Virus record (IMG/VR): IMGVR_UViG_3300046779_002349
Location: 86,180 to 150,179 of that record
Direction: 5' to 3' (one strand)
Source: a virus
Length of the DNA: 64,000 nt
How positions within the stretch are numbered: the first letter of the stretch is position 1; every line of letters starts with the position of its first letter. Below the pieces are notes generated by a model that was not told the DNA's origin, searched no databases, and saw only the letters and a list, made by a program, of their open reading frames with translations. Positions 4,211 to 49,766 of this stretch are shown piece after piece. The position numbers and the translations under genes were made by a program.

Positions 4211-4240
4211 ATTATATAACACAAGCGGAGCTATTTTTGC
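4211..4240 (-). promoter_or_regulatory. conserved phage promoter motif, copy 1
   Basis: GCAAAAATAG-CTCCG-CTTGTGTTA-TATAAT; same architecture at 23667 and 38190. Confidence 0.75.
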
Positions 4241-4542
4241 TTTGTTTTAAATAGCGCACTAGCATCCTTCTCCAGGATAGATAAAAAATGTTTTGTATCT
4301 GGATGCTTCAAGTGCATCCTCATCAGTTGTTCTGGAGACGGAGGTGGATTTATTTCCATCAATTGCGCTTTCCTTTTAGCTTCTCTAGCCTTTGCACCAG
4401 CTCTGCCCATTCTAGACAACTCTTCTTTGTTATTGGAGAAGATTGCTTTGATCAATTCTTGTGACTTCCCTTTAAATGGATCGAACTTAGGAGCTGCTGA
4501 TTTAATTAACATCCTTGGTATTAAAACAAAAATAGGTTTCAT
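4231..4542 (-). CDS. KxA-leader protein (putative virion-associated)
   Basis: N-terminus MKPIFVLIPRMLIKSA. Confidence 0.6.
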   Translation of the reverse strand: MKPIFVLIPRMLIKSAAPKFDPFKGKSQELIKAIFSNNKEELSRMGRAGAKAREAKRKAQLMEINPPPSPEQLMRMHLKHPDTKHFLSILEKDASALFKTKQK

Positions 4543-5624
4543 TTTAAGTAATTTTTTATTTTGTCCAAAAAGCTTATCTCTTCGGAATTCGACTGCGGTT
4601 TCTCTGGGGATATAAGAGGTTTATTTTTTTCTTTCAAGTAGGCATTAAGTTCTAAGCCGCCATAAGTGAGCCCTCCTAATCCTGCTGAGGTTAAAGGTAT
4701 ATCCCGTTTTGCTAACAGGTTTCTATTTTTATCTGCCTCTTTTAACGCGCCTACAGCTTGTTCTAGTTCAGTTCTGTATTGTGGACTTCCGATTACTGAT
4801 TTAACTCCGCGTAAATTACCTTCTCTGTCTAATAAATTGTTTCTAAAACCCCTCATGGTATCAGGGTCTGCTTTTATTTCTCCGTAATTTAATGCTTTTA
4901 AATAACTCGATAGCAAATCTATGTCTGATCCTTCTACTTTTGTTAACGGTCCTATATTCGCCGAATTTGTCATATATGCAAATTGCTTAGTAGGGCCTTC
5001 TGTAACGAGCTGTATACCTCTACTACTAGAGGTTGGGTCTGCAAAATAGATACCTCCTTTAAAATCTTTTTCTCTCAGTACTTTATTATCGGGGCTGTAA
5101 TGTCTAAACGGATCTCCGGTCTGATAATTTGTATAATTGCTTCTGTCAAATTGTGCTGCTCGCTCTGCATCTGTAAGTTTATCTTTCAAATTACTAAACA
5201 AAGAAACATTTCCTAAATCTTCTTTAGCTCCTAAATTCTTATGAATTAGATTTGAGTACAAGTTTTTATTTTTAACGAACTTATTACCAGCGGGAAGCAA
5301 GCTAACTAACTTGTCAAAGAAAGACGCTGCTTTTTTAAACTTTTTCAAAGGAGGTCCCATGCCTGGTCCTTCTACTTCTGATTTACCTGGAGGTTTTCCA
5401 TCATAACGAGTTCTTACCCATTTTCCAGATTCCATTAATCTTTTTTCGGAATCGCTGGGAGTTCTCACTGCTACGAGTTTATCACCACCTCTCTTTTTTT
5501 TAGCTCTAGCTTCTTCTTCGGAGCGTGCAGCAATACCTGTGTTTCTACCTTCGAAGTAATACAGTTTGTATTCCTCGCTGGCTTGTTTAATAAGGATAGT
5601 TGGAATTATTGAGTGTAGGTTCAT
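4539..5624 (-). CDS. KxA-leader two-part protein
   Basis: MNLHSIIPTILIKQA leader, internal KKFKKAA, C-terminal glycine-rich hydrophobic segment. Confidence 0.65.
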   Translation of the reverse strand: MNLHSIIPTILIKQASEEYKLYYFEGRNTGIAARSEEEARAKKKRGGDKLVAVRTPSDSEKRLMESGKWVRTRYDGKPPGKSEVEGPGMGPPLKKFKKAASFFDKLVSLLPAGNKFVKNKNLYSNLIHKNLGAKEDLGNVSLFSNLKDKLTDAERAAQFDRSNYTNYQTGDPFRHYSPDNKVLREKDFKGGIYFADPTSSSRGIQLVTEGPTKQFAYMTNSANIGPLTKVEGSDIDLLSSYLKALNYGEIKADPDTMRGFRNNLLDREGNLRGVKSVIGSPQYRTELEQAVGALKEADKNRNLLAKRDIPLTSAGLGGLTYGGLELNAYLKEKNKPLISPEKPQSNSEEISFLDKIKNYLK

Positions 5625-6602
5625 TTAATAGTTTTGCTTATTATTGTTAAACCACCTTTCTGCTGACCTAAGACCTTTTTCTGTTAAAAAAGTATTAGGT
5701 AGTTTAGATGCCCCTGCATTATGTAAGGCATCAGAAAGTTCATCTCCAGGTCGGTGTCTCCATAAGAATAATGGGTTAGCAGGTATAACTTTTCTCGTTA
5801 AAATTTTATCGGAGTCTGTCGGATGTAGCAAATACTGTGCGTCAGCACCATGTCCGCTCTCAGCTATTTTTGCGTTTAATTTTGGGCGAACTAATGCTAC
5901 AGCCGGAATGTCTCCATATCCATACGCTCCTCCTGCATACCTCGCTGTTACTGCATCATCAAACAAGCCTCTTATTTGGTTGTTAGTAGGACTAGTCCAT
6001 AAACTTCCATTACCTCCATCCGAAGCAATACTGCCGTATCCTTTTCCTTCTAGTACACGTTTCATTTTATACAAACTTCCAAAACTTTGAAGGTTGTTTT
6101 CGTCTAAAGCATCTACGGCTCTCCTTTTTTGTAAAGATTGTCCTACTACAGAAGCTCCTCCATATTTATGCTGTTTTATAAACTTTAGTTGATTTTTTAC
6201 ATCTTGTGGTGAATCAGCAAGATGTAATAATTTCTTAATAAGTTTTGTTCTGTTTCCATAGTCAGCGTGTACCCCATTTCTAGGACCCTGAATCCCTCCA
6301 TAATTTTTTACATTATTGCTAATCGCTTTGATAACTTCGGGAGTCCTCAATTGGGGGTATACCCTAGCTGCATGTATGGCCCTGAGAGTTTTGTCCATAC
6401 CAAAAGTAGGTACTTGCGGTATAACGCCGCCTACAGTGGTATCGACAGCAGCCCTAGATTTAGTTATACCTTCCAGCATTTTTAAAGCGTTAATCGGTTT
6501 TAAATGTGGAAGCATTTTTTCCCATTTTCTGGACGCAACCTTAACCAACCCAACACTGGCTTGTTTAATAAACTGCTTAGGAGCTAAAAAAAATAATTTC
6601 AT
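5625..6602 (-). CDS. KxA-leader protein
   Basis: MKLFFLAPKQFIKQASVGLVKVAS. Confidence 0.65.
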   Translation of the reverse strand: MKLFFLAPKQFIKQASVGLVKVASRKWEKMLPHLKPINALKMLEGITKSRAAVDTTVGGVIPQVPTFGMDKTLRAIHAARVYPQLRTPEVIKAISNNVKNYGGIQGPRNGVHADYGNRTKLIKKLLHLADSPQDVKNQLKFIKQHKYGGASVVGQSLQKRRAVDALDENNLQSFGSLYKMKRVLEGKGYGSIASDGGNGSLWTSPTNNQIRGLFDDAVTARYAGGAYGYGDIPAVALVRPKLNAKIAESGHGADAQYLLHPTDSDKILTRKVIPANPLFLWRHRPGDELSDALHNAGASKLPNTFLTEKGLRSAERWFNNNKQNY

Positions 6603-8020
6603 TTCAAAGGCATTACGTAATTTGAACTAAGATGTTCTAAGGCAGATAAAGTAGCTCTAATATTATCTTCCATATGAGGTTGTTTTGCAATCAAATCTTC
6701 GGCTCTTTGTCTAATAGGATCCAAGCCTTTTATTTTTACAGCACCTGTAGCTTCACGGATAGCTTTCGCCTTATTCCCTGTTCCTTTAGTTGCGTGAAAC
6801 TGAGTTCGGAGTTCGTCCAGAGCCGTAGTAGACCCAAGTATACGATTTTTTATTTCCTTTCCTCCCAATTTCTCTGACATCCGTAGCGGTAAATAAATGT
6901 TGCGATTGTACTTAGTTAAATCTTTACTTCTCAAAGGTATTTGTACTACGTGACCTAGCTCATGCCTGCCCGAGAGAGAATTAGCCGGAGCATAGATTTC
7001 ATTAAGATCCTTTCTTGCTCTTGCTTTATCTGTGAACCCGAGCTTTGGATCTTTCCATGATTGTTTACCAATCCATTTTCTGTATAACCAATTATCTAGG
7101 CTAGCAAAGAAAGAGCTTTTTTGAGGAGCTTTTCTCTTCGGTATGACCCTGCGTCCTTCTCTAATTTGTGCTAGGCTTGCGTCTCCAATTAATAACTTTT
7201 TTAACGGATTTATAGCATTGGTATCTACATTCCTAATACCTGCCAGCAAAGTGTCGTCAGAATTATACACTTCGCTTGCTGGACTGTTTCTCGCACTGTT
7301 TATTCTGGCATCTAATGTTTTCTGAATTTGCCTCAGTTCTCCTAATTGTTTTCCATACTCGTCATTAGCTCGTAATCCTTTATTTAGATTTCCGTGCATG
7401 GGTAGTTTAGCGGATTGTTCTGCTGTTCCTCTTAATATGCCGCCTCTTAATAGCTTAGTAAATTTATTAGCAGATTTCTTAATGAGCTTGCGTTCTCCAT
7501 TGATAAGATTAAAGCGTTTATCTGGTGTGGCTAACTTACCTTTAGAATTAGTTATAAAGCCACTCAGAGGAGACTTTAATGGCTTAGTTATAGTCACATA
7601 CTTCCTATCCTCTTTAACGCCTTCTACGGGGCTTTTAGAGGCTTTTAGATCTTCTTCAGTACCATTGATGGTTGAGGATTTTGTGAAGTATTTTGGGAGT
7701 ATGAAAGCAGACTTTTTTTCCATACTCTTCTCAATTGCGTACTCTTGTTTGTAAGCATCTTCAGGAGAATCATGAGTACCTAATTTTCTTTTGCCATCTT
7801 TAGTCCACAAAATCCATTTACCTGACTTTGGATCTTTTTCGATACGTGCTGATTTTTTAAGCTCGTCTCTAACCGTGGTATTACCTTTTTTGTGTTTCGG
7901 CGAGTAAGGGCAATTTGTGCAGCCAGAACCACAACAGGGTCTTTTCATAAGATCCTCTGCCGTTGGTTCTGATTTAGCTTGTTTTACAATTTCTTGTAGT
8001 TTAGCTAGGGAAAACTTCAT
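6599..8020 (-). CDS. KxA-punctuated multidomain protein (Cys-rich CCGSGCxNCPY domain; HELGH metallopeptidase-like motif)
   Basis: Segments separated by KQA, KKSA, KKSA, KSS, KKSA; RPCCGSGCTNCPY; RHELGH...DE. Confidence 0.65.
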   Translation of the reverse strand: MKFSLAKLQEIVKQAKSEPTAEDLMKRPCCGSGCTNCPYSPKHKKGNTTVRDELKKSARIEKDPKSGKWILWTKDGKRKLGTHDSPEDAYKQEYAIEKSMEKKSAFILPKYFTKSSTINGTEEDLKASKSPVEGVKEDRKYVTITKPLKSPLSGFITNSKGKLATPDKRFNLINGERKLIKKSANKFTKLLRGGILRGTAEQSAKLPMHGNLNKGLRANDEYGKQLGELRQIQKTLDARINSARNSPASEVYNSDDTLLAGIRNVDTNAINPLKKLLIGDASLAQIREGRRVIPKRKAPQKSSFFASLDNWLYRKWIGKQSWKDPKLGFTDKARARKDLNEIYAPANSLSGRHELGHVVQIPLRSKDLTKYNRNIYLPLRMSEKLGGKEIKNRILGSTTALDELRTQFHATKGTGNKAKAIREATGAVKIKGLDPIRQRAEDLIAKQPHMEDNIRATLSALEHLSSNYVMPLK

Positions 8021-8026
8021 TTGGAT

Positions 8027-8055
8027 ATTATAGCTAAAAAAAGAAATGTAATCAA
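8027..8055 (-). promoter_or_regulatory. sigma70-like promoter, leaderless
   Basis: TTGATT-17-TATAAT, 6 nt before ATG 8020. Confidence 0.7.
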
Positions 8056-8077
8056 TTGTTTACTTGCTTAAGCTATT

Positions 8078-10594
8078 TTATCTTTTTAGGGTCTCCATCA
8101 ATTTACTAATACCGTCACTTACTTTCGTGTCATTTATTTTATTCGCAGTAGGAAACAAACTAGAAAGTGATGCTGCTGACAACCCTAGTCCGGCGAGACC
8201 CTTGACCCCGCCTACTAAATTTTTAAGTCTTTTTTGACGGGAAAGTACAGGTAACAGAGCTTTTGTCATATTTGCCTTGGCATAATTATTAGCATGAAGC
8301 TGCCCTGCTCCTCTACGTAATGCGGCAGAATAGTCGTCTTTATTAAGGCGTTCTAAGATATTAACTAATTGTCTTGGGGAGTTAATGGCTTTTACTCCTT
8401 GCTGGCGTAAGGCAAACTCTCTGTTGCCGCTATTCCACTCATCTAGCTTTACCATTTTGTGCTCGTCTAAAAATTCAGGATCTATATCTACTCCAAGGCG
8501 TTTAAGTCTGTCGAATATTCTTTTTTCTTTATCTTTTAATCTACTCCAATTAGTTTGAACACCCAGTACTGACTTGGAGCTTAGTGCTTCTAATGCCCCA
8601 GAAGTTCCTGTGGAAATATCGTGAAAGTCCGCTATATCAGGTAGCCCTATGTAAAGATCCTGAGGTAATTTTTCGAATAATAGTAGATTTTTATCTTTTT
8701 TAAGAGACCTAGAGATAGGATTATTTTCATGATTTTTACCTAACATTCCTGCTATCTGGTATTTATCCGTTAACCCAGCTCTTCTTAATTCTCTTCGTAA
8801 CTCCCTTATTCTGGAGCCCACGTAATCGCCCCGACCAGACCCTGTTACAAAAATTAATTTTTTGTCTCCTAAATTTCTTAACAGTTGTTTCTGGTGATCG
8901 TTTAGATTTGGATTACGAAGAGCCTCATTAATTACATCCGTTTTAGTTTTTGTTTGAGAATCCTGCAAAATAGAAGTAGCTTTTTCTGTCAGTGTTGGCA
9001 TTCCTCTATTGGACACATTTATTCTATTAAATTGTCTATTAAAGTCTTGTTCCTTTCCGCCTTGTTTTAAGTTTCGCAGTAGGATATCTTCCGGTCCCCA
9101 GGTTATGAAGTTATCTTTAATCCCTACTTTTTGGGCTAAACGTCTCAAAGGACCATCTATGTTTAATTTATATCCAAAATGCGGAGAACCTACCGTACCC
9201 ACGTCTGTCATGTAACCTACAAAACCGCCAGGTGCCACTCTTGCCCGAGAATCTCTTCTCAATTGTCCTGGAGAATCTCCTTTGTCCCAATCCCATGGGC
9301 TAGTGGGGCCCATTCCTGCGTCAGCGAAAACATCGAATTTTTTTCTATATGATCGTTTGTCGTAATTATTAGAAGAATCTCTATATGCATCAACTATGTC
9401 AATATCTGCAAACTGTGGATTTTCTTTTTTAATGTCGATTAAGACATCTCGCATCGCTTGCCCTGGGTTTTTATGTCCATCGCCATGTCTTGCCAATTCG
9501 GACCAAGATACTCCGACTCTAAGTGGTCTGACTAAATCGTTTACCCCAGACCCTAAGCTCATTGCTCCGGCAGCTACTCCGGCAACTGCTGGTAATTCCT
9601 CTGTTACATTTGATTTTTTCTCTAATGTATCTTTTATTTCTTTTCCTCCAAATAACAAGCCCATTCCTGCAGAAGTATTCCTTGCAAAGGTTGTTGCTTT
9701 ATTTAAATTAGGTATAATTACGTCCGCTGCGTTTTCGTAATTCTGCGCATTTCCTCCACCAGAAGTTAATGGGCTAGAACCAGCGTATTTATTTCGCAAA
9801 TCTCTAAAGTATTTACGCGCATTAAGTGCATCCTCCTTCATACCGCGTCTTTGGAGATCCGTTAAGGCTTGTGCTATTTTGTCAGAAGGGTACTCTTTAA
9901 TTATCTTCTCTGCTTCAGGAGAAACGTGCTTGTACAGATCTCCGTATAGGTTATACTTGTACAAGTCTTCTCTATCGGCAGTTTTAAACTTTCTATAATG
10001 ATCTAATGTGTATTTAGCCGGAGGTTCTACATGTGCATCATCCCATGTTTTTTGCCATTTTTTATTATTGTTAGGGTCTATTCTAAATCTTAACTTTTCC
10101 AAGAATCCTACAGGTTCATTTCTTTTTTCTCTTCCTGCGATATCAAAAGCCTTATCGAGTTTAGTTCTGTATCTATTTTTAAGCAGACTACCTTTCACAT
10201 ACTTATCCAATGTAGTTACTGGGTTAAATTTATTCTCTTTTAAGGCCTCAAATAAAACGTTTCCATGGAGCCCCCTATAAGGGATTTCCATACCAAGAAC
10301 TTTTGTTTTAATTAAATCTTGCCCTCCATCTGCATAAGCTTTAGCTGCGGCTATTCCTTGGGATAATGGAGTTTTTTGTGAAAAAGCTTTTGTTTTAACT
10401 GCTTGGTTAAACGCTCTAGTTTTTTCATGAAGTTTACTTAAATCTAGTTTCGCTTTATGACTAATTCCCGCCAAAGCACCAGAGGCCAAAAGTCCTATTA
10501 AATTTGTATAATTTTTGTCTTTATTCCCTGTTCTGACGTCATTGGACTTTTTTTCAAAGTAAAACCCAGGTAGTATGTAACTTAACTTACGCAT
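8078..10594 (-). CDS. KxS-leader large protein; C-terminal half is glycosyltransferase (GT-B)-like
   Basis: ILPGFYFEKKS leader and internal TLEKKS; GDGHKNP, IFVTGSGRG and STGTSGALEAL resemble MurG/MGDG-synthase-type motifs. Confidence 0.5.
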   Translation of the reverse strand: MRKLSYILPGFYFEKKSNDVRTGNKDKNYTNLIGLLASGALAGISHKAKLDLSKLHEKTRAFNQAVKTKAFSQKTPLSQGIAAAKAYADGGQDLIKTKVLGMEIPYRGLHGNVLFEALKENKFNPVTTLDKYVKGSLLKNRYRTKLDKAFDIAGREKRNEPVGFLEKLRFRIDPNNNKKWQKTWDDAHVEPPAKYTLDHYRKFKTADREDLYKYNLYGDLYKHVSPEAEKIIKEYPSDKIAQALTDLQRRGMKEDALNARKYFRDLRNKYAGSSPLTSGGGNAQNYENAADVIIPNLNKATTFARNTSAGMGLLFGGKEIKDTLEKKSNVTEELPAVAGVAAGAMSLGSGVNDLVRPLRVGVSWSELARHGDGHKNPGQAMRDVLIDIKKENPQFADIDIVDAYRDSSNNYDKRSYRKKFDVFADAGMGPTSPWDWDKGDSPGQLRRDSRARVAPGGFVGYMTDVGTVGSPHFGYKLNIDGPLRRLAQKVGIKDNFITWGPEDILLRNLKQGGKEQDFNRQFNRINVSNRGMPTLTEKATSILQDSQTKTKTDVINEALRNPNLNDHQKQLLRNLGDKKLIFVTGSGRGDYVGSRIRELRRELRRAGLTDKYQIAGMLGKNHENNPISRSLKKDKNLLLFEKLPQDLYIGLPDIADFHDISTGTSGALEALSSKSVLGVQTNWSRLKDKEKRIFDRLKRLGVDIDPEFLDEHKMVKLDEWNSGNREFALRQQGVKAINSPRQLVNILERLNKDDYSAALRRGAGQLHANNYAKANMTKALLPVLSRQKRLKNLVGGVKGLAGLGLSAASLSSLFPTANKINDTKVSDGISKLMETLKR

Positions 10595-10652
10595 AAACTA
10601 ATAGCTCATTATATCAATCCTAATAAATTAATGCAATTGATTAATTTAACCC

Positions 10653-11378
10653 TTACAAATTAAGCATGTCTTTTAACTGCTTTGGTGTGTTAGCTACTTC
10701 TGAATTATTAAACCCGCCTTTATGCTCTTTCCACTTGTACTCCAACGCTGGTGTTGCTGCTGCAGCCAAGTAAGTAGGAACTCCTATAAATGCTTTCAAT
10801 GCAGACAACCTGGATCTGCCTAAGTTTCTAAGCATTTTATAACCTCTTGTCGAAGCGTCTAATTCACTACCCAATACTGTACCAAATCCTAATGTGCCTA
10901 GAATCGCTGAATTTGCTGAGTGTTCTTTATTATTCAGCATAGGAACACCAGTAGACCCTATAAGCCCAGCTAACATGCCTGCCCTATGTGCTTTTGTAAT
11001 CATCGGGTATTTTCTCATACCCTCTTTATGTCCTAGTTCATGGGCTAATACTGGAGCTGATTTATCTTTAGGATTAATATTTATTTTCTGCGTATCCGGA
11101 TAGAAAGCCGAAGCCGTACTTCTTTCGGAGATAAACTTCTTATCTGTGTTCTTTAAAGTCTCGTATCTAGTCGGATCTTTTTTATAATCTCTGCGGAGTA
11201 GTGGGCGCATTACCCCGCTGTGATAGCCCATGTTTAAGGCTGTTAAGGCCGCATTTGGTCCGAACAGAATTTCTGGTATCCCGTAATCGTTCTCGCCAGG
11301 TTTTGCCTTATCAAAATAATCTAGAACTCCTGATTGTTTGATCAGTACTGTAGGAACTAAACAACCAATAGTTTTCAT
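10653..11378 (-). CDS. KxS-leader zinc metallopeptidase-like membrane protein
   Basis: LVPTVLIKQS leader; VLAHELGH...ELDASTRG zincin-like motif; hydrophobic segments. Confidence 0.6.
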   Translation of the reverse strand: MKTIGCLVPTVLIKQSGVLDYFDKAKPGENDYGIPEILFGPNAALTALNMGYHSGVMRPLLRRDYKKDPTRYETLKNTDKKFISERSTASAFYPDTQKININPKDKSAPVLAHELGHKEGMRKYPMITKAHRAGMLAGLIGSTGVPMLNNKEHSANSAILGTLGFGTVLGSELDASTRGYKMLRNLGRSRLSALKAFIGVPTYLAAAATPALEYKWKEHKGGFNNSEVANTPKQLKDMLNL

Positions 11379-11381
11379 TTA

Positions 11382-12014
11382 TTACTGAAGTTTATTTTGA
11401 TTCTGCATTTGGTCTGCAATTTGCATCTGCTTTTCAATCAGATCAGCAACTGTGCTAGGAGCTAAACCTTTATTGTTTCTAAGATAATCCGTAACTATAT
11501 CTGCTGCAAATCTCTGCTTATCTTTAGTAAGTTCAGGAGTAGTGGTGTCGGAACTCCAACCAAGAGGAACTTGAGAAATTTTATCTTGAATCATTTCTCT
11601 ATCCCCTGCTTTAGGAGATAGGGAGTAAATAACTTTGTCTCCCACTTTCATTTCTTTACCAGCGGTTTGCTGCGTAATTTTATCCATCGTTTCGTTGGTC
11701 AATCTGTTTCTTCTCATTGAGCCACCAGCATAACCAGCAGCTCCTCCTACTCCTGCACCAATCAAAGCGGCCATCAAAGCTCTTTTAATTTTGGATGTAC
11801 GAGGTCTAGGAGAGTCGTTTAGAGAGTCGAATAAAGAAGTACCCAAATACGCACCACCCCCTGCTGCAAGTGCGCCTAGAGCTGCTCCTGCAAGCCCTGT
11901 CTGATTAGGGTTGTTTGGTTTAAAATCTTTTAGTGGAGTATCCATTACAGGGTCTACACTTGTATCGAAAGACTGCTTGATTAAATAAGTTGGAATTACG
12001 TTATGTACTTTCAT
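11382..12014 (-). CDS. KxS-leader glycine-zipper protein
   Basis: VIPTYLIKQS leader; GAALGALAAGGG and AALIGAGVGGAAGYAGG. Confidence 0.6.
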   Translation of the reverse strand: MKVHNVIPTYLIKQSFDTSVDPVMDTPLKDFKPNNPNQTGLAGAALGALAAGGGAYLGTSLFDSLNDSPRPRTSKIKRALMAALIGAGVGGAAGYAGGSMRRNRLTNETMDKITQQTAGKEMKVGDKVIYSLSPKAGDREMIQDKISQVPLGWSSDTTTPELTKDKQRFAADIVTDYLRNNKGLAPSTVADLIEKQMQIADQMQNQNKLQ

Positions 12015-12036
12015 TAAATAAATATGCTAATTATTA

Positions 12037-14298
12037 TCAGGGGGTTGCTACGGTACCTTTAACTTTCTCGTTCTTCTTAATCAAATCAAGCACAAGGTCA
12101 CCCATGGATTTAAACTGAGATTTCAATTTATTTTCCAGGATAGGCATGTCATCGGAGCCATAAAGTTTTTCAAAGTCTGCTGGTTTCCAATAGAGCAGGA
12201 AAAGAATTCTACCAAAATGGTCCAATCCTTTTTCTAGGCTAGGCAGGTAGTTTTCAATGAGTGCAGCAGAGTCATAGGTAGTAACAAGAGATCCTACCAG
12301 ACCATGTTCAAATAGATTCGATACTCTGCTTGTACCTGCCATTTGAGCAAGTTCTTCTGGAGATTTATCAAGAATGTCCTGATCTCTAAAACCTTTCTTC
12401 TCTGCCTCTTCCGAAAGCATTCCGTTTTGCACACCTTGGTTCAGATTCATACCATAACCCATATTGAGTACAGGTCTATTCAGTACAGTTCTTTCTGACT
12501 CGGCTACATGTGTTTGTTCTGGATCTGTTACTACGGCTAGAGAGCTATCGTAGTCTTTTTGGAAGTTTGGTCTGTCCGAGAAATATACAGCCGCTTTCTT
12601 CTCAAATCCAATATTGGGAATAAGATAGAAATCTTTGCTGGAGCGGTTAGAAGCCAGTTTGATCATTCTCTCCGCATCGGTGAAAGAGATATTATAGAAA
12701 CCAGCTATCTTGGTTTGACCCATTAACATGTCGCCTTGAGAAGTGAACAAAGGTTTTTCATTCTCGTATACCTTGCACTCCTCAATCATGTCATCGACTT
12801 TGAGCGTAACTTTCTTAACTCCGCGCTTTTTCAAGTATTTCCACAAGTCTTCCATTTTTACATAATCACAATCAGGACACTCAAATGATTTATAATCCGA
12901 TTCGTAATCTCTTTTAGTTTCCGTAAGAGGAAGAAAGATCGTATATTTACTAAAAATAGCTCTAGAGTTATCGCTCACATAATCTGGGCAATCATCTTCT
13001 TCGAGATCTTTGTTGATAGCTACAGTAAAGTTCTGACCACCTTTGCTGGACTTGGCTTTATAGATATATACGTTATCTTTTTCTTTTACTTTTTCTACTA
13101 CAGAGAATGGGCAACCAAATACTTTTGTGGATGTATTAAACGGCACCACATACCCGCTAGTAGGTGGTAGATCTTTTCCTTCAATGGTGTCTTTGAGTAG
13201 TGAATTAAGATACTCTCCTGAGGTTTCTTTTTCTTTATCTACGCAAGCAACTAGGTTTCCACCACGGCAGTAATCAAGTTTTTTATACGTCTTGTTATAG
13301 CACATATCCACACCTGGAGGGCAGGTCGGAGTTCTGTAGCTAGTAGACCACGGCTCTACTCCGAAGGCTTCTTTTTGCGAGTAACCAAGAATAACATCCA
13401 CTTCTTCACCAGTGTCAGTAAGTACTGTATGTTCTCCGGCTTCACTTGCCTCAGAAAAAGCTTCATTAACTTCGTCCATAACGTAGTTGAGCTCGTCTTC
13501 TTTGCGCATGTCCCAGAGCTGGTAGCCTTTTTGCGTGTACTCTTTGAGGTCTTCTTTTGCGAACTTAGTGAAGTCGATATCAAATACGATTTCAATATCT
13601 GGATTATTAGTTGGATTAGCTCTCTTTTCAATTTCTTCGGGGAATAGGGTTTCTTCGTCAATACTAGCAACAGCTTCGGCAAACTCAAAAGATTTTTCAA
13701 TTGCTCCTGCGATCTTGGACATCACAAATTCCGCATCTTTTTGTACAAGTGATTTAAGTCCAGAATCTACTGGAGTAATCGTAGTTTCGATACTATCAAA
13801 AGCTTCTTCCCAGGCTGCTTTCAAGTTGTCGTCAGCAGAAGCTCTTTTAAAAAGATTCTGTGGACTTGCAATAGTGCTTAGACGAGGGTTTTGAATCATT
13901 TGATCTGCTTTATCTCGACTCATTGCTTCGCCTTCTTTAAGCTCAGTTTTATTAATCAAATGCTCTACCCAAGCTGGATCCAGGGGACGCATCATCTTGA
14001 GTTTATGCTCGTACATCATCTCCGTACCTTTGATGACTCCATTTGCGAAAATAACAGGAACAGAAACAAGGTTTTTCCCAATACGGAAAGCGTACATACC
14101 CGCCATTTTGGAGTTATCGTCATTGGAGTAAACTACCTCAAATCCAATACGATAAGGATCTTCCATAAGTCTTCCTGCTCTAGCTGCCACTGCATTATAG
14201 GAAAGGTCGATAAATGCTTTCTCTAGATCAGCAGAAGTGTTTGCGGATTTTTTCAGTTGTTCGAAATCTTTAATCCAGTTGTACATAATTTTATACAT
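12037..14298 (-). CDS. large acidic hypothetical protein with repeated KxA motifs (putative structural protein)
   Basis: 753 aa; KKSA, KRAS, KIA, EKRA, KFA, KLAS, EKKAA; start may be 14286. Confidence 0.6.
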   Translation of the reverse strand: MYKIMYNWIKDFEQLKKSANTSADLEKAFIDLSYNAVAARAGRLMEDPYRIGFEVVYSNDDNSKMAGMYAFRIGKNLVSVPVIFANGVIKGTEMMYEHKLKMMRPLDPAWVEHLINKTELKEGEAMSRDKADQMIQNPRLSTIASPQNLFKRASADDNLKAAWEEAFDSIETTITPVDSGLKSLVQKDAEFVMSKIAGAIEKSFEFAEAVASIDEETLFPEEIEKRANPTNNPDIEIVFDIDFTKFAKEDLKEYTQKGYQLWDMRKEDELNYVMDEVNEAFSEASEAGEHTVLTDTGEEVDVILGYSQKEAFGVEPWSTSYRTPTCPPGVDMCYNKTYKKLDYCRGGNLVACVDKEKETSGEYLNSLLKDTIEGKDLPPTSGYVVPFNTSTKVFGCPFSVVEKVKEKDNVYIYKAKSSKGGQNFTVAINKDLEEDDCPDYVSDNSRAIFSKYTIFLPLTETKRDYESDYKSFECPDCDYVKMEDLWKYLKKRGVKKVTLKVDDMIEECKVYENEKPLFTSQGDMLMGQTKIAGFYNISFTDAERMIKLASNRSSKDFYLIPNIGFEKKAAVYFSDRPNFQKDYDSSLAVVTDPEQTHVAESERTVLNRPVLNMGYGMNLNQGVQNGMLSEEAEKKGFRDQDILDKSPEELAQMAGTSRVSNLFEHGLVGSLVTTYDSAALIENYLPSLEKGLDHFGRILFLLYWKPADFEKLYGSDDMPILENKLKSQFKSMGDLVLDLIKKNEKVKGTVATP

Positions 14299-14368: not shown

Positions 14369-14926
14369 TCATACTTTTGATAACTTCACCAGCATGATGG
14401 TGTTTAAACTCGAAGAAACTAGTATTGCTGCAAGTAACGCAATAGCCCAATTGAAAGGTTTTTTCTCTGGTGGGAGAATTTTAATCTCTTCATTTGGATT
14501 ACGCATAGGCTTAGCTAAAATAGCCACTTCTTTTTTAGGTTCTGGTTTCTTAGCAATAACTGGTGCGCTACTAACTCTCGTAACAGAAACTCTTTTTAGC
14601 CCCTGGTTCCAAGTAAGTCCAATTTGCTTTGCTGCGGCTGGAGTAAGATCAATAATACGTCCTTTGATAAACGGACCTCTATCCGTGATCTTTACTACAA
14701 CTGACTTTCCTGTTTTTAGGCAGGAGACTTTAACTTTACTTCCTAGAGGTAGTGTTTTATGCGCTGCGGTTAGAGCGTTATCATTAAGTCTAGAACCAGA
14801 AGCTGTTCTTGTACCTCCGTTAGTCTTTACAGAATAAATTGAGGCAACTCCAATCTCACCTGCGGCTAATTTATTTAGGCCTAAGGTAATTAGAAAAGCG
14901 ATGATAAGTACGATTAGTTGTCTCAT
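14369..14926 (-). CDS. rlpA: RlpA-family (double-psi beta-barrel) lytic transglycosylase-like protein
   Basis: GVASIY...TASG...[16 protein letters not shown]...[24 protein letters not shown]; signal peptide and C-terminal TM helix. Confidence 0.9.
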
Positions 14927-15120: not shown

Positions 15121-15336
15121 TTATATGGTTATTTTAACTTTTGTGTGATTAACTTTCTTTGGTCTTTCATCTATGAGGGCCCCATTTGAATTTTCGTAGT
15201 AGATTACCTTACCATTAGCATTGTATTCTGCTTTGCTCCAGTAACCACCTGCTTCTTCGTAGTAGGTTACATTGTCGTTAGCATCCTTAATAACATAAGG
15301 AAATTCTGTGATACCATTTTGCTGTGCTAGAGTCAT
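15121..15336 (-). CDS. MTLAQQN-family 21-aa-repeat protein with C-terminal tag
   Basis: 71 aa; ends KKVNHTKVKITI. Confidence 0.85.
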   Translation of the reverse strand: MTLAQQNGITEFPYVIKDANDNVTYYEEAGGYWSKAEYNANGKVIYYENSNGALIDERPKKVNHTKVKITI

Positions 15337-15611
15337 ATAGTTAATTGAACTTTTGTGTGATTAACTTTCTTTGGTCTTTTATCTATGATATCGCCAAATG
15401 AATCTTCGAAGTAGATTAAGTTTTCTTTTTCATCGTATTCTCTTTTGCGCCAGTAACCAAGTGAATTTTTGCAGTAGGTTTCATTACCTCTAGAATTGTA
15501 TTCTGACTTGTACCAGTAACCGTCTGCATTCTCGAAGTAAATAATTCTTCCTTTTTCATCCTTAATAATATAAGGAAATTCTGTGATACCATTTTGCTGG
15601 GCTAGTGTCAT
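15333..15611 (-). CDS. MTLAQQN-family repeat protein with C-terminal tag
   Basis: 92 aa; ends NHTKVQLTI. Confidence 0.85.
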   Translation of the reverse strand: MTLAQQNGITEFPYIIKDEKGRIIYFENADGYWYKSEYNSRGNETYCKNSLGYWRKREYDEKENLIYFEDSFGDIIDKRPKKVNHTKVQLTI

Positions 15612-15886
15612 ATAATTATTTTAACTTTTAGATGATTAACTTTCTTTGGTCTATTGTCTCGGATATACCCAGATGAATCTTCGAAGTAGATTACATTGTC
15701 GTTATAATCATATTCTCTTTTGCGCCAGTAACCATATGCATTTTCGCAGTATGTTTCCTTACCGCTAGCATCATATTCTACCTTGTACCAGAAACCATCT
15801 GCATTTTCGTAGTAAATACTTCTTCCTTTTTGATCTCGAATAATATAAGGAAATTCTGTGATACCATTTTGCTGTGCTAGAGTCAT
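15608..15886 (-). CDS. MTLAQQN-family repeat protein with C-terminal tag
   Basis: 92 aa; ends NHLKVKIII. Confidence 0.85.
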   Translation of the reverse strand: MTLAQQNGITEFPYIIRDQKGRSIYYENADGFWYKVEYDASGKETYCENAYGYWRKREYDYNDNVIYFEDSSGYIRDNRPKKVNHLKVKIII

Positions 15887-16161
15887 ATAGTTAATTGAAC
15901 TTTTGTGTGATTAACTTTCTTTGGTCTTTTATCTATGATATCGCCAAATGAATCTTTATAGTAAATTAACTTTCCTTTTTCGTCATGTTCTCTTTCACTC
16001 CAGTAACCAGTTGAATCTTCACAATAAGTTACATTGCTGTTGGCGTCATATTCGCTTTTGACCCAGGAACCACTTGGATTTTCTAAGTAAATAATTCTTC
16101 CTTTTTGATCTCGAATAATATAAGGAAATTCTGTTATATTATTTTGTTGCGCTAGTGTCAT
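15883..16161 (-). CDS. MTLAQQN-family repeat protein with C-terminal tag
   Basis: 92 aa; ends NHTKVQLTI. Confidence 0.85.
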   Translation of the reverse strand: MTLAQQNNITEFPYIIRDQKGRIIYLENPSGSWVKSEYDANSNVTYCEDSTGYWSEREHDEKGKLIYYKDSFGDIIDKRPKKVNHTKVQLTI

Positions 16162-16436
16162 ATAGTTATTTTAACTTGTAAATGATTAACTTTCTTTGGT
16201 CTTTTGTCTACGATGGTCCCATCGTAATCTTCGTAGTAGATTAAGGTTCCTCGTGCATCATATTCTGCTTTGCGCCAAAAACCAGTTGACTCTTCGTAGT
16301 ATGTTTTCTTACCATTAGAATCATATTCTGATTTGAACCAGGAACCACTTGAATCTTCGTAGTAAATACTTCTTCCTTTTTGATCTCGAATAATATAAGG
16401 AAATTCTGTAATTCCGTTTTGCTGGGCTAGTGTCAT
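16158..16436 (-). CDS. MTLAQQN-family repeat protein with C-terminal tag
   Basis: 92 aa; ends NHLQVKITI. Confidence 0.85.
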   Translation of the reverse strand: MTLAQQNGITEFPYIIRDQKGRSIYYEDSSGSWFKSEYDSNGKKTYYEESTGFWRKAEYDARGTLIYYEDYDGTIVDKRPKKVNHLQVKITI

Positions 16437-38297: not shown

Positions 38298-39044
38298 TTA
38301 ACCTTTATACCCTGCTTGCAATTGCTGCATCTTCTGCTTGTCTACACGACTCTTAGGATCGAAAGCGGAGCCGTGTTGCTTACGGAAGATTGCGTTAAAA
38401 TCAGGTGCTGGTTTAGCTGGGGTTGCTGGTCTGCTGGCAGGCATGGTTGGTGCTTTTCCTGCTGGGGCTGGAGCAGGAGGGCCTACTTGTGCAGGAGGTT
38501 GTGGGCTTACTGGAGTAGCTTTAGGGATTGTGGGGTTAGCTCCGTAATCTTTTCTTACTTTGTCCGCAAAAGCTCGCTGGTTAGTTTTAGCCTGCATAGC
38601 TCTCGTATAGGCGGGAGACGCTTGTTCGGCTGCATTATTTTGTGCATCCATGCGGTTATCGGCGGCGGAGCCTGGCAGTAAAGAACCTAAATAATTAGTA
38701 GCCTTGGAGTACGAGTTTGCTCCACTTTCTAGAGCGTTGTTATACATTTGACCAATGTTATTAAAAATACCACCTACACCAGAAGTTTCTGCATTATATG
38801 GGGTTTCAGCGTAACCTGGGGTCGTACCTGTAATGGGTCCGTGTTGTGCTTCGTACTGTGGTCTTTTACCTGCGGTTGAAATGCGATTAATATACCGCTG
38901 GCTTGGTTGAGCTGCTTGTTCTAGTATGTTGTCTAGATTTTGATCTCCTGTACCTCCTGGAATTTCTGCAGGGGCTGGTACGGATAGTGCCTGTTTTACG
39001 ATTTCGCTAATTGTGGCGGATTTGATTATATTTAGATGTTTCAT
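38298..39044 (-). CDS. KxA-leader Pro/Ala-rich protein
   Basis: MKHLNIIKSATISEIVKQA; PA-rich linker; C-terminal FRKQHGSAFDPKSRVDK segment. Confidence 0.65.
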   Translation of the reverse strand: MKHLNIIKSATISEIVKQALSVPAPAEIPGGTGDQNLDNILEQAAQPSQRYINRISTAGKRPQYEAQHGPITGTTPGYAETPYNAETSGVGGIFNNIGQMYNNALESGANSYSKATNYLGSLLPGSAADNRMDAQNNAAEQASPAYTRAMQAKTNQRAFADKVRKDYGANPTIPKATPVSPQPPAQVGPPAPAPAGKAPTMPASRPATPAKPAPDFNAIFRKQHGSAFDPKSRVDKQKMQQLQAGYKG

Positions 39045-39100
39045 ATTTAAAGTTAACTAATTATACTATTTTTTGTTTTTGTTATCAAATTCTTAATTTA

Positions 39101-39544
39101 TCAATAATATTTTTTATTACCCATACCATCCATCCCGTAATACTGCAGCCCTTGCCCTGGAGAGTCCCACCATTCTTTTAGAGCCATTGCATTAGAAGGA
39201 CCTATTGCAGAGATGGCGTAGCGTTGCCAAGAGGGTAGGTTTTCCCATTCTTGCCCAACTCTATTTTGAGCTAAATTGTAAGCATCGGCATATGCTTTCT
39301 GAGCTATATGGTCTTCTACTTCAGATTTAGATCCTACGTATGCTAATGCAGGCATAGCAGCTGTACCCGCTAGTCCGATACCGTATCTAGCCGTGCCAGG
39401 AAGTTTGTTCCATTGTTTAGTTACTGGCGCTGTAGCTTTGCCCCAAGCGTTACCAATAGCCGAAGTAATAGCCGACAAACCTTTAGCTTTATTTGCCTGC
39501 TTCGTCATGGAATAACTAATTAATATAGAGGAAGATTTTTGCAT
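39101..39544 (-). CDS. KxA-leader protein with a hydrophobic helix
   Basis: ILISYSMTKQA; GIGLAGTAAMPALAYVG. Confidence 0.6.
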   Translation of the reverse strand: MQKSSSILISYSMTKQANKAKGLSAITSAIGNAWGKATAPVTKQWNKLPGTARYGIGLAGTAAMPALAYVGSKSEVEDHIAQKAYADAYNLAQNRVGQEWENLPSWQRYAISAIGPSNAMALKEWWDSPGQGLQYYGMDGMGNKKYY

Positions 39545-40263
39545 TACAGTTGAAAGTTATTAACCCCTTTTTGTACTTCGTTGCGAATCACACCATCCAG
39601 CGCGTCAGGACTACCCAATAGCAGGCTACCATAATCAATGCCTTTTCCTGGTTTTGTATAGGAAGGATCAACTGCTTTTGAAATCATGTTAGGATTTCTA
39701 GCCAGCTTTAGCCTGTCTTTAAAGGATAGGGAATCGAATCCTTGCATCATATCTTGTGCAGATTGCATACCCCCTTGCTGTGCGGCTTGGTTAGCAATTT
39801 CCTTTGCATTTGTGTAACCGTGTAATTGGCCAGCTCTAGAAAATGGATCGACGTTTACTCCCAATAAACCAAGCCCCGTGTGAGCTCCCATCGACCCCCA
39901 CATACCTGTAGTTTGATTAGGCGAAAAGGCCATCATCCTAGGGGTATCGTACGCAAGTGTGAGGGCTTTTCTACCAAGCTTAACTGCCGTTTGCTTTCCT
40001 GGCGTAAGTCCTTGTACGTAATTGTCGAATTCGTTGTTTAGTCTTGTATGCCTACCTTGATATTTGGACAGGGCTTTTTGCGCACTGTCTACTCTCCATT
40101 GCATTCCTGGATCGTTACCGTATTTCCCAATCATTTTTTGTGCATGAGAAATATTACCTTCCGCTAAACCAGCTCTAGCTCCAGAATGCAAAGCTCTGAA
40201 CAATTGCTTTACTGGGGCAAAGTTAAATGCTGCTGATTTTTCTATGAAGGAATATGGGTCCAT
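39544..40263 (-). CDS. KxA-leader protein
   Basis: MDPYSFIEKSA. Confidence 0.6.
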   Translation of the reverse strand: MDPYSFIEKSAAFNFAPVKQLFRALHSGARAGLAEGNISHAQKMIGKYGNDPGMQWRVDSAQKALSKYQGRHTRLNNEFDNYVQGLTPGKQTAVKLGRKALTLAYDTPRMMAFSPNQTTGMWGSMGAHTGLGLLGVNVDPFSRAGQLHGYTNAKEIANQAAQQGGMQSAQDMMQGFDSLSFKDRLKLARNPNMISKAVDPSYTKPGKGIDYGSLLLGSPDALDGVIRNEVQKGVNNFQL

Positions 40264-40931
40264 TAGAATGGATTGTTTCCGAGAATGCGATCGATTATAC
40301 CTTGGTTGTTGTAGCGTTGTTGAGCTTCTTGCATGGCTCGCATGTAGCCTTCGTAAGTACCCATTACCTGGCCGCTTTCTCTACCTCTTGATTCGCCCAG
40401 CCCAGATCCAAGAAGGTATCCGCCAGTTCCTGTTCCTAGGCCAACTGCGGCTGTTCCTACTCCAGGTCGATCAAATAATCTTGCTAGGCGATCCGCGAAT
40501 CCTTGATCTGCGACTTCATCTACTGCTCCACCGTAAGCTACTGGATAGTTATTAGCTACTTGGGTTGTTGCGTTATTTGTTCCCTTAGGAGTAACATTTC
40601 TCATACCTGGTCCAGTTGTCGTTGCATCGACAGGAATAGGGTTTGGTGGAGTAGATAGCCCAGCATTATAATCAATAGCCTTTGGGCCTTGGGCTGCTTG
40701 AGCTGCGGTATTTGGGGTTACTGGAGGAATTTCTCCACCCCTCCTTCTTAGTTCTCTGAGTGACTTTGCCGCAAGCCCTCTCTGTGCGTGATTTTTAGGC
40801 AGCGTTTTAACAGCATCTAACGCTGTTCGTAAATTGCCTATTGTTGCGGTATCAGTTTTTCCTCCTAATGAAGCAATACCCCTAATCAGTCGCGCATTAA
40901 ATGCAGCTTTAATCAACTCACTTTTATTCAT
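40263..40931 (-). CDS. KxA-leader glycine-zipper protein
   Basis: MNKSELIKAA; GVGTAAVGLGTGTGGYLLGSGLG. Confidence 0.6.
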   Translation of the reverse strand: MNKSELIKAAFNARLIRGIASLGGKTDTATIGNLRTALDAVKTLPKNHAQRGLAAKSLRELRRRGGEIPPVTPNTAAQAAQGPKAIDYNAGLSTPPNPIPVDATTTGPGMRNVTPKGTNNATTQVANNYPVAYGGAVDEVADQGFADRLARLFDRPGVGTAAVGLGTGTGGYLLGSGLGESRGRESGQVMGTYEGYMRAMQEAQQRYNNQGIIDRILGNNPF

Positions 40932-46193: not shown

Positions 46194-47485
46194 CGGGGCA
46201 TATGGGTCGCAAACCCCGCCCTTCAGGGCGGCTTTCAATTTATTATGTAATTTTCTTGTTGACATTTTTTAATTAGTGGTTATCTTTCAATTCAAGATGC
46301 AGCGCGCATACCAATACAGATTCTACCCAACCCCTGAGCAGGAATCACTGCTTAGGCGTACGATTGGGTGTTGTCGGTTTGTATACAACCGCGCTTTAGC
46401 GATTCGTCAAGAAGCATGGGTTCAAAGAAGCGAAAAGATTTCTGGTTTTGACCTCATCAAGAAAATAACGCTATGGAAAAAGGAAGAGGAAACTCAATGG
46501 TTGAAAGAGGTTTCCAGCGTTCCACTTCAGCAAGCAATAAATAATCTTGAGGTCGCTTATCAGAACTTTTTTGCCAAGAGAGCTAAACATCCGACATTCA
46601 AAAAGAAGTCATCTGGTGGGTCATGCAGATTCACCGAGTTTGCCTTTCGCATCAAGGATGGGGATGTTTGGCTCGCTAAAACTAATGCTCCACTAGACAT
46701 TCGTTGGAGTCGCCCACTCCCAGAAGGTGCAAAGCCAAAGCAATGCACCGTCAGGCTAACGCCGTCTGGAAAGTGGTTTATTTCTTTTCTGTGCGATGTT
46801 CAAATCCAAAAGCTGCCGCCCTCTAGCCAATCAGTAGGATTGGATATGGGAATATCCGCATTAGTTACTTTGTCCACTGGGGAGAAAATAACCAACCCTA
46901 AGCTGATGAGGGAGTATCGCAAAAGACTCGCGACAGCTCAGCGACACCTTTCTAGGAAGAAGGTTGGCAGTAAGCGCAGAGAACGAGCAAAGATAAAAGT
47001 TGCACGCATCCACGAAAAGATTTCAAACACAAGGAAAGATCAATTGCACAAACTCACAACTCGACTCGTTCGCGAAAACCAAACGATTGTAGTAGAGGAT
47101 TTGAATGTGAGAGGCATGCTCAAAAACCATTGCTTGGCTGGCTCCATATCGGACGCAAGTTGGCATCAGTTAAAGAGCATGCTTGAATACAAGTGCGGCT
47201 GGTATGGGCGGGAACTTAGGGTCATAGACCGTTGGTATCCGTCATCTAAGACATGCAGCAATTGCGGTCATGTCGTCAGAAAGTTGCCACTTGCAATCCG
47301 TGAATGGAAATGCCCGTCATGTTCGGCAATCCATGATCGTGATGTAAATGCAGCGATCAACATTTTATCGGCGGGAATCGTCGATTACACTCGTGGAGAA
47401 GGCGTGAAACCGAAGCGGATGAAATCCGTGGACGTAGCCCTCAATGAAGCGAGAATCCCTGCCCTTTAGGGCGGGGAGGATTCAA
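46194..47485 (+). mobile_element. IS200/IS605-family element with TnpB only (IS1341-like)
   Basis: TTGAT directly 5' of the element, CCGCCCTTCAGGGCGG left hairpin, CCCTGCCCTTTAGGGCGGGG right hairpin, TTCAA right end; removing it restores a clean host gene end. Confidence 0.85.
46297..47469 (+). CDS. tnpB: RNA-guided endonuclease TnpB
   Basis: AYQYRFYPT, RFVYNRAL, RuvC residues GLDMG / VVEDL / DRDVNAA, and CxxC...CxxC zinc ribbon. Confidence 0.97.
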   Translation: MQRAYQYRFYPTPEQESLLRRTIGCCRFVYNRALAIRQEAWVQRSEKISGFDLIKKITLWKKEEETQWLKEVSSVPLQQAINNLEVAYQNFFAKRAKHPTFKKKSSGGSCRFTEFAFRIKDGDVWLAKTNAPLDIRWSRPLPEGAKPKQCTVRLTPSGKWFISFLCDVQIQKLPPSSQSVGLDMGISALVTLSTGEKITNPKLMREYRKRLATAQRHLSRKKVGSKRRERAKIKVARIHEKISNTRKDQLHKLTTRLVRENQTIVVEDLNVRGMLKNHCLAGSISDASWHQLKSMLEYKCGWYGRELRVIDRWYPSSKTCSNCGHVVRKLPLAIREWKCPSCSAIHDRDVNAAINILSAGIVDYTRGEGVKPKRMKSVDVALNEARIPAL

Positions 47486-49484: not shown

Positions 49485-49766
49485 TCATATAGTTAATTGA
49501 ACTTTTAAATGGTTGACTGGTTTCTTTGGTCTTTTGTCTATTATGTTCCCATCGGAATCTTCGTAGTAAATTCTGTTTCCTTTTTCGTCGTATTCTTTTT
49601 TAGTCCAGTAACCAATGGAATCTTCGAAGTAGGATCTATTTCCTTTTGCATCATATTCTAATTTATGCCAGTAACCACTTGAAGTTTCGTAGTAGGTTTG
49701 CCTCCCGTGCGTATTCTTAATAATATAAGGAAACTGTGTAATTCCGTTTTGCTGTGCTAGTGTCAT
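49485..49766 (-). CDS. MTLAQQN-family repeat protein with C-terminal tag
   Basis: 93 aa; ends NHLKVQLTI. Confidence 0.85.
   Translation of the reverse strand: MTLAQQNGITQFPYIIKNTHGRQTYYETSSGYWHKLEYDAKGNRSYFEDSIGYWTKKEYDEKGNRIYYEDSDGNIIDKRPKKPVNHLKVQLTI

Follow-up and report, generated by a model that had tools for sequence, protein, structure and literature searches.

A leader-tagged phage protein with repeated K-x-[A/S] junctions is probably a head cargo polyprotein

The open reading frame (ORF) at positions 6599-8020, on the minus strand, of a 64,000-nucleotide stretch of viral DNA probably encodes a leader-tagged head cargo polyprotein that is cut after the motif K-x-[A/S] by the head protease of the phage. 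The stretch, called the window here, is the final 64 kb of a single virus record of 150,179 bp (IMG/VR record IMGVR_UViG_3300046779_002349, positions 86,180 to 150,179), and nearly all of its genes lie on the minus strand. Sequence comparisons give good support to the view that the protein would be cut into several small products. The head protease is the likely cutter because the same signal marks the self-processing sites of the protease, the propeptide of the capsid protein and the scaffold.

The ORF call covers the whole 473-residue precursor (P0001) and a stop codon. An earlier note on the window had described a leader ending in KQA, units each ending in KKSA, the segment FILPKYFTKSS and a part containing HELGH, and residue positions in P0001 bear out this layout. 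The order is leader-KQA, Cys4 unit-KKSA, KW unit-KKSA, FILPKYFTKSS, ING unit-KKSA and HELGH body, all on the minus strand. The leader (residues 1-15, MKFSLAKLQEIVKQA; window 7976-8020) ends in site 1 (K13-Q-A15), is kept in P0002, P0007-11 and P0015, and is a candidate capsid-targeting propeptide. The Cys unit (residues 16-58; 7847-7975) contains a CCGSGCTNCPY knuckle and ends in site 2 (KKSA 55-58). It reaches 19.0 bits over residues 26-42 against Pfam DUF5522 (PF17653), below the cut-off of 25. The homologous P0012 cassette reaches 38 bits against the same family, so the Cys unit appears to be a divergent relative of DUF5522 rather than a scored member. The KW unit (residues 59-105, KWILWTKDGKRKLGTH...AYKQEYAI; 7706-7846), a predicted mini-domain of three strands and a helix, ends in site 3 (KKSA 102-105) and matches phrog_3684 (E 1.6e-5). 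FILPKYFTKSS (residues 106-116; 7673-7705) ends in site 4 (K114-S-S116), and K114, S115 and S116 are invariant in the alignment of the P0001 family (A1; five homologues at 41-67% identity). The ING unit (residues 117-184, TINGTEEDL...TPDKRFNLINGERK; 7469-7672) ends in site 5 (KKSA 181-184) and is the most conserved stretch of the family, nearly invariant among the five homologues; it is also predicted to be disordered, with a predicted local distance difference test score (pLDDT) below 50. The C-terminal body (residues 185-473, 289 residues; 6602-7468) carries HELGH at residues 353-357 (6950-6964). A false fusion caused by assembly or a frameshift artefact was ruled out, as the full-length homologue P0002 (67% identity) shows the same full architecture.

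The motif arrangement in the ORF is real and well above chance, as the counts of KKSA and of the leader pattern exceed expectation. About 1.2 copies of KKSA would be expected in the proteome of 47.7 thousand residues, and six are present, including three in ORF 6599-8020 and one each in the head protease and in the leader of ORF 12037-14298. When the whole of P0001 was shuffled 100,000 times, three copies never appeared; when the shuffling was confined to the K-rich first 190 residues, they appeared at a frequency of 1e-5. An extended leader pattern was defined as two hydrophobic residues, P, two or three residues, a hydrophobic residue, one or two residues and K-[QKS]-[AS]. The proteome has eight matches to it where 0.49 would be expected. 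Neighbouring genes account for six of them, at residues 6-7, and the other two are internal, one here and one in ORF 12037-14298. Within this proteome the pattern is specific to leaders. FILPKYFTKSS, which the earlier note took for an internal copy of the leader, fits this pattern and heads a separate gene, P0004. It would appear to be the retained leader of a gene that was formerly, or is elsewhere, separate.

The units of P0001 are shuffled among its relatives, and the joints keep the motif. A phmmer search with P0001 against 1.8 billion representative proteins gave 104 matches, with only three or four full-length relatives. Most matches are to the KW and Cys units, which lie at N-terminal, internal or C-terminal positions in proteins as long as 2,174 residues. 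The KW unit accounts for about 80 of the matches, within large proteins bearing InPase, 2H phosphoesterase or GNAT domains. Both units also occur as standalone genes of 45-80 residues (51-80 for the standalone Cys-unit proteins). P0003 has the leader directly on the KW unit and is missing the Cys unit, P0005 and the metagenomic locus L006 have an extra module between the FILPKYFTKSS-type leader and the ING unit, and P0006 has an additional N-terminal module and a different body. In P0007-11 and P0015 the leader, Cys and KW units are followed by other bodies, and in P0013 a leader, the KW unit and an internal leader precede an unrelated body of 600 residues. K-x-[A/S] is present at every joint among these relatives (P0003-P0011, P0013, P0015 and L006). 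The four module types and the leader are found in several arrangements, in keeping with recombined unrelated domains. The earlier note had proposed looking for the units in standalone leader-bearing genes, and such genes exist: MLIPFIVPNYFIKSS is the N-terminal start of both P0004 and P0005, and P0004 begins MLIPFIVPNYFIKSS↓AINGTEEDL (the arrow marks the presumed point of cleavage here and below). Related copies of the ING unit are bounded by K-x-A in P0007, P0015 and P0034, and the Cys cassette is flanked by K-x-A on both sides in P0016, P0017, P0036, P0040 and L040. K-x-A↓(V/I)(V/I)(K/R) almost always precedes the KW unit. In KW copies that open a protein, the initial M sits exactly at the residue that follows K-x-A in the fused copies.

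It is conceivable, though we consider it unlikely, that the small N-terminal units are not products but make up a long disposable propeptide, which serves in targeting or as a scaffold before it is cut up by the head protease and expelled from the head, and that only the HELGH body is kept and injected. The multiply cut propeptides on head proteins of phiKZ and SPN3US meet this fate. All five sites fall within the first 184 residues of P0001, and an ING unit that is conserved yet predicted to be disordered is what would be expected of an assembly-interaction segment. The cuts identified in phage SPN3US, self-cleavage aside, all remove N-terminal propeptides, some of which have several sites (PMC10052503). 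The varied positions of the Cys and KW units, and their standalone genes of 45-80 residues, fit autonomous mini-proteins better. The KW unit also has a confident predicted fold of its own: it is the only confident unit of the AlphaFold model of P0001 (residues 58-105, pLDDT 75-80), with strands at 58-62, 69-73 and 79-83 and a helix at 86-105. The KKSA motifs at 55-58 and 102-105 exactly bracket this unit in the model, and residues 103-188 are predicted to be disordered. The idea that the motifs lie at domain boundaries, and not inside folded domains, therefore stands for the KW unit; elsewhere the model is too weak to judge it. Foldseek with the low-confidence precursor model gave no meaningful match; a weak row to 2yzt, of about 53 columns, may correspond to the KW unit and serves as a lead. 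Among the alternatives to a cargo polyprotein, the disposable propeptide is a real one.

The case for the head protease as the cutter of a cargo polyprotein comes from the head genes. The head module just outside the window encodes a 487-residue protein (genome 79176-80639; L005:7176-8639) that matches phrog_18299, "head maturation protease" (E 1e-7). Its AlphaFold model has a pLDDT of 84, and the top Foldseek match is T4 gp21 (5JBL; probability 1.0, template modelling score 0.58); the protease of human cytomegalovirus appears as a weak row only. On the evidence of this model, the phage appears to encode a head-maturation serine protease of the T4 gp21 fold. The family has about 960 members, on contigs of up to 213 kb. 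In an alignment of 28 homologues drawn from these (36-91% identity), K33/A35/S37 (...IKSA↓AS...) and K230/A232/S233 (...QKAA↓S...) are invariant or nearly so. The two sites flank the catalytic domain, and the N-terminal one coincides with the only N-terminal low-confidence loop of the model (residues 31-35, pLDDT below 50). The same motif marks other head proteins. For comparison of head genes, 27 related viral loci were retrieved, and the capsid protein (assigned by an Atlas score of 0.98) has a homologue in 24 of them (25-51% identity). Its propeptide ends in K-x-A in 24 of these 24, and in this genome the extension reads EFSKKA↓SAIG. Scaffold homologues likewise carry a propeptide ending in K-x-A, and the scaffold of this genome has five sites. 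In the N-termini of 523 genes of the head region, the frequency of K-x-A is 1.75 per 100 residues and that of its mirror A-x-K is 0.46; K-x-A is present in 223 of the genes and A-x-K in 67. In 25 related loci the homologues of ORF 12037-14298 bear the leader DW(K/R)K-x-A or else, among distant members, begin immediately behind it.

The motif seems to follow the head protease rather than the KW module, although the sample is small. Viral contigs with the KW unit were located by a degenerate DNA pattern. K-x-A is on both flanks of the unit in four of the four contigs that encode a member of the head-protease family. Such flanks are missing from two distinct cases in which no protease could be detected, a 101-kb record (90% complete) and a set of identical fragments in which the KW unit heads a lysin. 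Distant cultured relatives of the protease occur in Salmonella phage Arash, Vibrio phages D181, D148 and D69, Bacillus phage G (gp19) and Pseudomonas phage Peetri. In Arash, K-x-A is abundant in the protease, the scaffold-like proteins and the capsid protein.

It could be argued that nothing is cut, and that P0001 is an ordinary multidomain protein active at full length, in which K-x-A and the hydrophobic leader serve as a conserved linker or as a docking element (in packaging or the binding of a chaperone, for instance). Cleavage has been observed nowhere in this clade, and PMC5512222 describes a polyvalent protein, the virion RNA polymerase of N4, that is packaged unprocessed. The catalytic domain of the protease is, however, bracketed by invariant sites, one in a disordered loop; the N-terminal extensions of the capsid protein invariably end in the motif; and leaderless homologues start exactly past it. 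Because of these three observations, K-x-A is better read as a cleavage signal than as a passive linker, and the absence of cleavage is the least likely of the alternatives, with very little to recommend it.

The junction motif is K-x-[A/S] and not strictly K-x-A. At some sites either of two adjacent bonds could be the one that is cut; site 5, for example, is KESA in homologues, which fits K-x-S↓A. The start points of leaderless homologues favor a cut directly after A/S.

P0001 could also be a self-cutting polyvalent protein, with no part for the head protease. Its K-x-A joints would then be cleaved by its own HELGH module, or by the HELGH protein encoded at 10653-11378, at some time before, during or after injection. 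H353, E354 and H357 are invariant in alignment A1. Residues 321-468 of P0001 align with residues 804-950 of the InPase-type protein P0032, with RHELGH kept, and HExxH modules recur in several other relatives (P0006, P0017, P0020 and L040). Iyer et al. argue that metallopeptidase domains process polyvalent proteins (PMC5512222). K-x-A nevertheless also flanks the catalytic domain of the serine protease and ends the capsid propeptide in 24 related phages, and these are classic head-protease substrates. The HExxH module is missing from many K-x-A-bounded proteins (P0007-11, P0015 and ORFs 4231, 4539 and 5625). The zincin assignment is not backed by any fold match or by a usable sequence match of the HELGH body in Pfam, PHROGs or the PDB. 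Conserved Glu residues follow HELGH (E403, E441, E451 and E462), and pLDDT near the motif is about 33. On sequence grounds, the HELGH body is a candidate zincin-like metallopeptidase module of polyvalent proteins. Self-cleavage is a less likely explanation than cutting by the head protease, and we regard it as improbable.

Two other explanations of the leaders were rejected. Sec, Tat or lipoprotein signal peptides do not fit, since the leaders lack an extended hydrophobic core and the domains behind them are of cytoplasmic type. Prp-type cleavage acts on the L27-like FA↓S leaders of Firmicutes phages; cleavage by a host enzyme of this type does not fit either, given that the motif is kept in relatives that infect Salmonella and Vibrio.

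For a cargo polyprotein cut by the head protease we infer the following course, from packaging and cleavage to the exact bond and the roles of the pieces. The 473-residue precursor would be made first, and its N-terminal leader would draw it into the assembling prohead, by analogy with the capsid-targeting sequence of T4. The protease of gp21 fold would then cut after K-x-[A/S]. Cutting at all five sites would yield a leader of 15 residues, a Cys4 piece of 43, a KW piece of 47, a spacer of 11 that is a relic leader, an ING piece of 68 and the HELGH body of 289. Pieces retained in the capsid would enter the host along with the DNA. In evolution this would act as a fuse-and-split system, in which each module has its own leader-and-site cassette and can exist as a separate gene or within a giant fusion while loading and release are kept. 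It is possible, and we put it forward only tentatively, that leader and K-x-A together form a portable "load-and-cut" tag by which a large clade of 100-210-kb phages can freely fuse and split its cargo genes, and that the Cys4, KW and ING units are freed in the capsid and injected as effectors.

Several points weigh against this scheme. The cargo cluster is about 7 kb away from the head genes, and packaging is argued by analogy only. The HExxH module within P0001 is an alternative candidate cutter. K-x-A is short, and unconserved copies are found in K-rich proteins (GKLA within the ING unit, for example), so some matches are perhaps uncut. The precursor model as a whole has a low mean pLDDT (49.8), and site 5 lies within a low-confidence predicted helix. 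The test of the link between motif and protease comprises six independent contigs only, three of them fragments. The Arash paper reports virion mass spectrometry, and the words "protease" and "cleav..." are absent from its text.

The phage appears to be far removed from any cultured phage. A collection of cultured phages (50,697 phage records) gave no match to the cargo region by megablast or tblastn, and none to P0001. The head genes are mostly without a PHROG or Pfam match. Scans of IMG/VR and GTDB with the family alignment and with P0006 as queries gave no confirmed locus, and a metagenome scan gave one locus only, L006 (3.5 kb).

The phage would work like the cargo systems of T4 and phiKZ but seems to belong to neither lineage, because its junctions are K-x-[A/S]; neither the T4-type L/I-x-E nor the phiKZ-type S/A/G-x-E motif is found at the joints of P0001. 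Like the cargo described here, the T4 internal proteins (IPI-III) and Alt carry a short N-terminal leader on otherwise unrelated, clustered proteins, the leader ends in the motif of a head protease of gp21 fold, and the cargo presumably enters the host together with the DNA. In T4 the motif is L/I-x-E, whereas here it is K-x-[A/S] at the end of a leader of about 15 residues with a hydrophobic-hydrophobic-Pro core. P0001 differs further in its four additional internal sites and internal leader copy, which would yield pieces of 40-70 residues, and in being known from sequence alone. In phiKZ and SPN3US (gp175 and gp245 proteases; S/A/G-x-E), one head protease cuts itself and many head and ejection proteins, some of them multiply (PMC10052503, PMC5694885). 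These phages differ in cleavage code and lineage, and the pieces removed there are mostly N-terminal propeptides, whereas those here are mobile modules that also stand alone.

A more distant likeness is to the herpesviruses. The assemblin protease (VP24/UL26 family) cuts release and maturation sites of the form (V/L/I)-x-A↓S, with a small residue at P1 and often Ser at P1'. Assemblin also releases its own catalytic domain from a C-terminal scaffold-like part, which resembles the K230-x-A232↓S233 site of the phage protease. We know of no cargo polyproteins in herpesviruses. The phage enzyme differs from assemblin in the invariant Lys at P3 and in having T4 gp21 as its best structural match. The assemblin fold class is related to the phage prohead proteases (Cheng et al. 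2004, as cited in PMC10052503).

Two features of the phage protease itself may be added. The C-terminal helical part of 255 residues that is set off by K230-x-A232↓S233 recalls the protease-scaffold precursor of herpesviruses. Inside the catalytic domain is an invariant cluster, C161/C164/C175/H177 (...CSCCGNKAK...YCDHL...), which is a probable zinc site; to our knowledge no such site has been described for T4 gp21. In a related phage, a KSA-flanked KW unit is inserted in the N-terminal part of a conserved head protein of 540 residues that is encoded just upstream of the protease (L035:1159-1185 and surrounding ORF; IMGVR_UViG_3300032092_000475). This insertion indicates that cargo cassettes can ride on structural head proteins.

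ORF 6599-8020 is one of eight consecutive genes (4231-14298) with leaders that end in K-x-[A/S] at residues 9-19. Three downstream cargo genes on the minus strand (4231-4542, 4539-5624 and 5625-6602) have their own K-x-[A/S] leaders and are elsewhere modules of fused polyproteins; the 3' end of ORF 6599-8020 shares 4 nt (ATGA) with the start of the next of them. Four upstream leader-bearing genes, also on the minus strand (8078-10594, 10653-11378, 11382-12014 and 12037-14298), complete the cluster. Residues 981-1278 of P0032 correspond to residues 19-318 of ORF 5625-6602 at 46% identity and directly follow the HELGH module of P0032 (804-950), such that the domain order there is the gene order here. 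The P0032 junction HVFYPKPSLTKLA↓S aligns with the leader LFFLAPKQFIKQA↓S of ORF 5625-6602. Residues 148-224 of P0015 match the entire ORF 4231-4542, leader included, and residues 158-226 of P0060, bounded by K-x-S, match residues 9-77, the first unit, of ORF 4539-5624. The earlier note had claimed the same layout for two neighbours, and the motifs are there: KKAA at 97-100 in ORF 4539-5624, and EKKS at 14-17 and 325-328 in ORF 8078-10594. The recurrence of the first unit of ORF 4539-5624 in P0060 supports the claim for that gene, and the second EK(K/R)S↓N of ORF 8078-10594 is kept in L006.

The large relatives of P0001 carry InPase (PF18823, E 1e-38 to 1e-47), 2H phosphoesterase, GNAT, LigD_N and glucosaminidase domains, and the KW, Cys and HELGH modules are found in the InPase proteins P0012, P0018, P0023, P0024, P0032 and P0051. 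The junction code is enriched in 61 of these large proteins, with 57 copies of EK[SQKT]A against 5.2 in shuffles and 96 of KSA against 24; no excess is seen for the mirrors ASK and AQK. From their domains, the large relatives are phage-type polyvalent proteins as defined by Iyer, Burroughs, Anand, de Souza and Aravind (2017, J Bacteriol 199:e00245-17). Because the neighbouring leader-bearing genes are modules of giant InPase-type proteins, the phage seems to carry a largely split polyvalent protein, of which ORF 6599-8020 would be the part that is still, or again, fused. Like polyvalent proteins, P0001 joins unrelated domains and an HExxH module in one chain; it is far smaller (473 residues) and built mostly of mini-modules. 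In the paper of 2017 (PMC5512222) a metallopeptidase is predicted to perform the processing, and text searches of it showed no named junction motif, whereas the joints here carry the head-protease code and the modules keep their leaders.

Processing of cargo by T4 (internal proteins and Alt), phiKZ and SPN3US is already known, as are polyvalent proteins, and literature searches returned these T4, SPN3US and polyvalent-protein precedents; no K-x-A head-protease code, leader cassettes at fusion joints or mini-modules of this kind were found described. If the scheme is correct, K-x-[A/S] would be a readable cleavage code for a large clade of which almost nothing is in culture (about 960 protease homologues), and sequence alone would suffice to predict capsid cargo and the products into which it matures. 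Polyvalent proteins would be dismantled by the head protease at coded joints, instead of or besides the metallopeptidases proposed in 2017, and the free shuffling of effector modules would be explained by the loading-and-release cassette that each module carries. Three very small, widespread modules (Cys4, KW and ING) would be flagged as candidate injected mini-proteins. Should the load-and-cut tag exist as such, it would amount to a peptide-effector polyprotein system in a DNA phage, with a logic akin to that of RNA-virus polyproteins and prohormone precursors.

Other members of the cargo cluster have features of their own. ORF 12037-14298, a conserved head protein of 753 residues, contains an internal leader copy, LIPNIGFEKKA↓A (residues 559-569; window 12592-12624, minus strand), which precedes the C-terminal part (about residues 640-745) that is best conserved in distant relatives. 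This protein may be cut in two as well. ORF 10653-11378 (minus strand) is a second leader-bearing HELGH protein that shares only the pentapeptide with P0001; its residues 86-226 recur in the large KW-bearing proteins P0018 (InPase-bearing), P0056 and P0070. Adjoining the cluster, at 14369-14926 (minus strand), is a gene whose product, a lytic transglycosylase of the RlpA-like double-psi beta-barrel type (PF03330, E 2e-22), has a signal-like N-terminus.

A promoter-like sequence, TTGATT-N17-TATAAT, lies at 8027-8055 on the minus strand, and its -10 box ends 6 nt ahead of the ATG at 8020, which has no Shine-Dalgarno sequence. Promoter-ATG arrangements of this kind occur twice on the minus strand of the window (the second abuts the ATG at 25162) and once on the plus strand, with 0.32 expected per strand from shuffles. 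The arrangement suggests a leaderless or near-leaderless transcript that starts within the cargo cluster.

Elsewhere in the window, a second run of four consecutive genes with K-x-A leaders (...IIKSA↓...IVKQA↓, ...SMTKQA↓, ...FIEKSA↓ and ...ELIKAA↓) is present at 38298-40931 on the minus strand, in a stretch of raised G+C (0.41-0.43); here too the leaders end at residues 9-19. These genes may be a further cargo or virion set. Tandem arrays of paralogues of about 92-114 residues that start MTLAQQNGITEFPY... are found at 15333-16436, 49485-51012 and 61677-62622 (minus strand). Among the few long plus-strand ORFs is one of 397 residues at 46276-47469, which, from its N-terminal sequence, may be a TnpB/OrfB-type protein of the IS200/IS605 kind.

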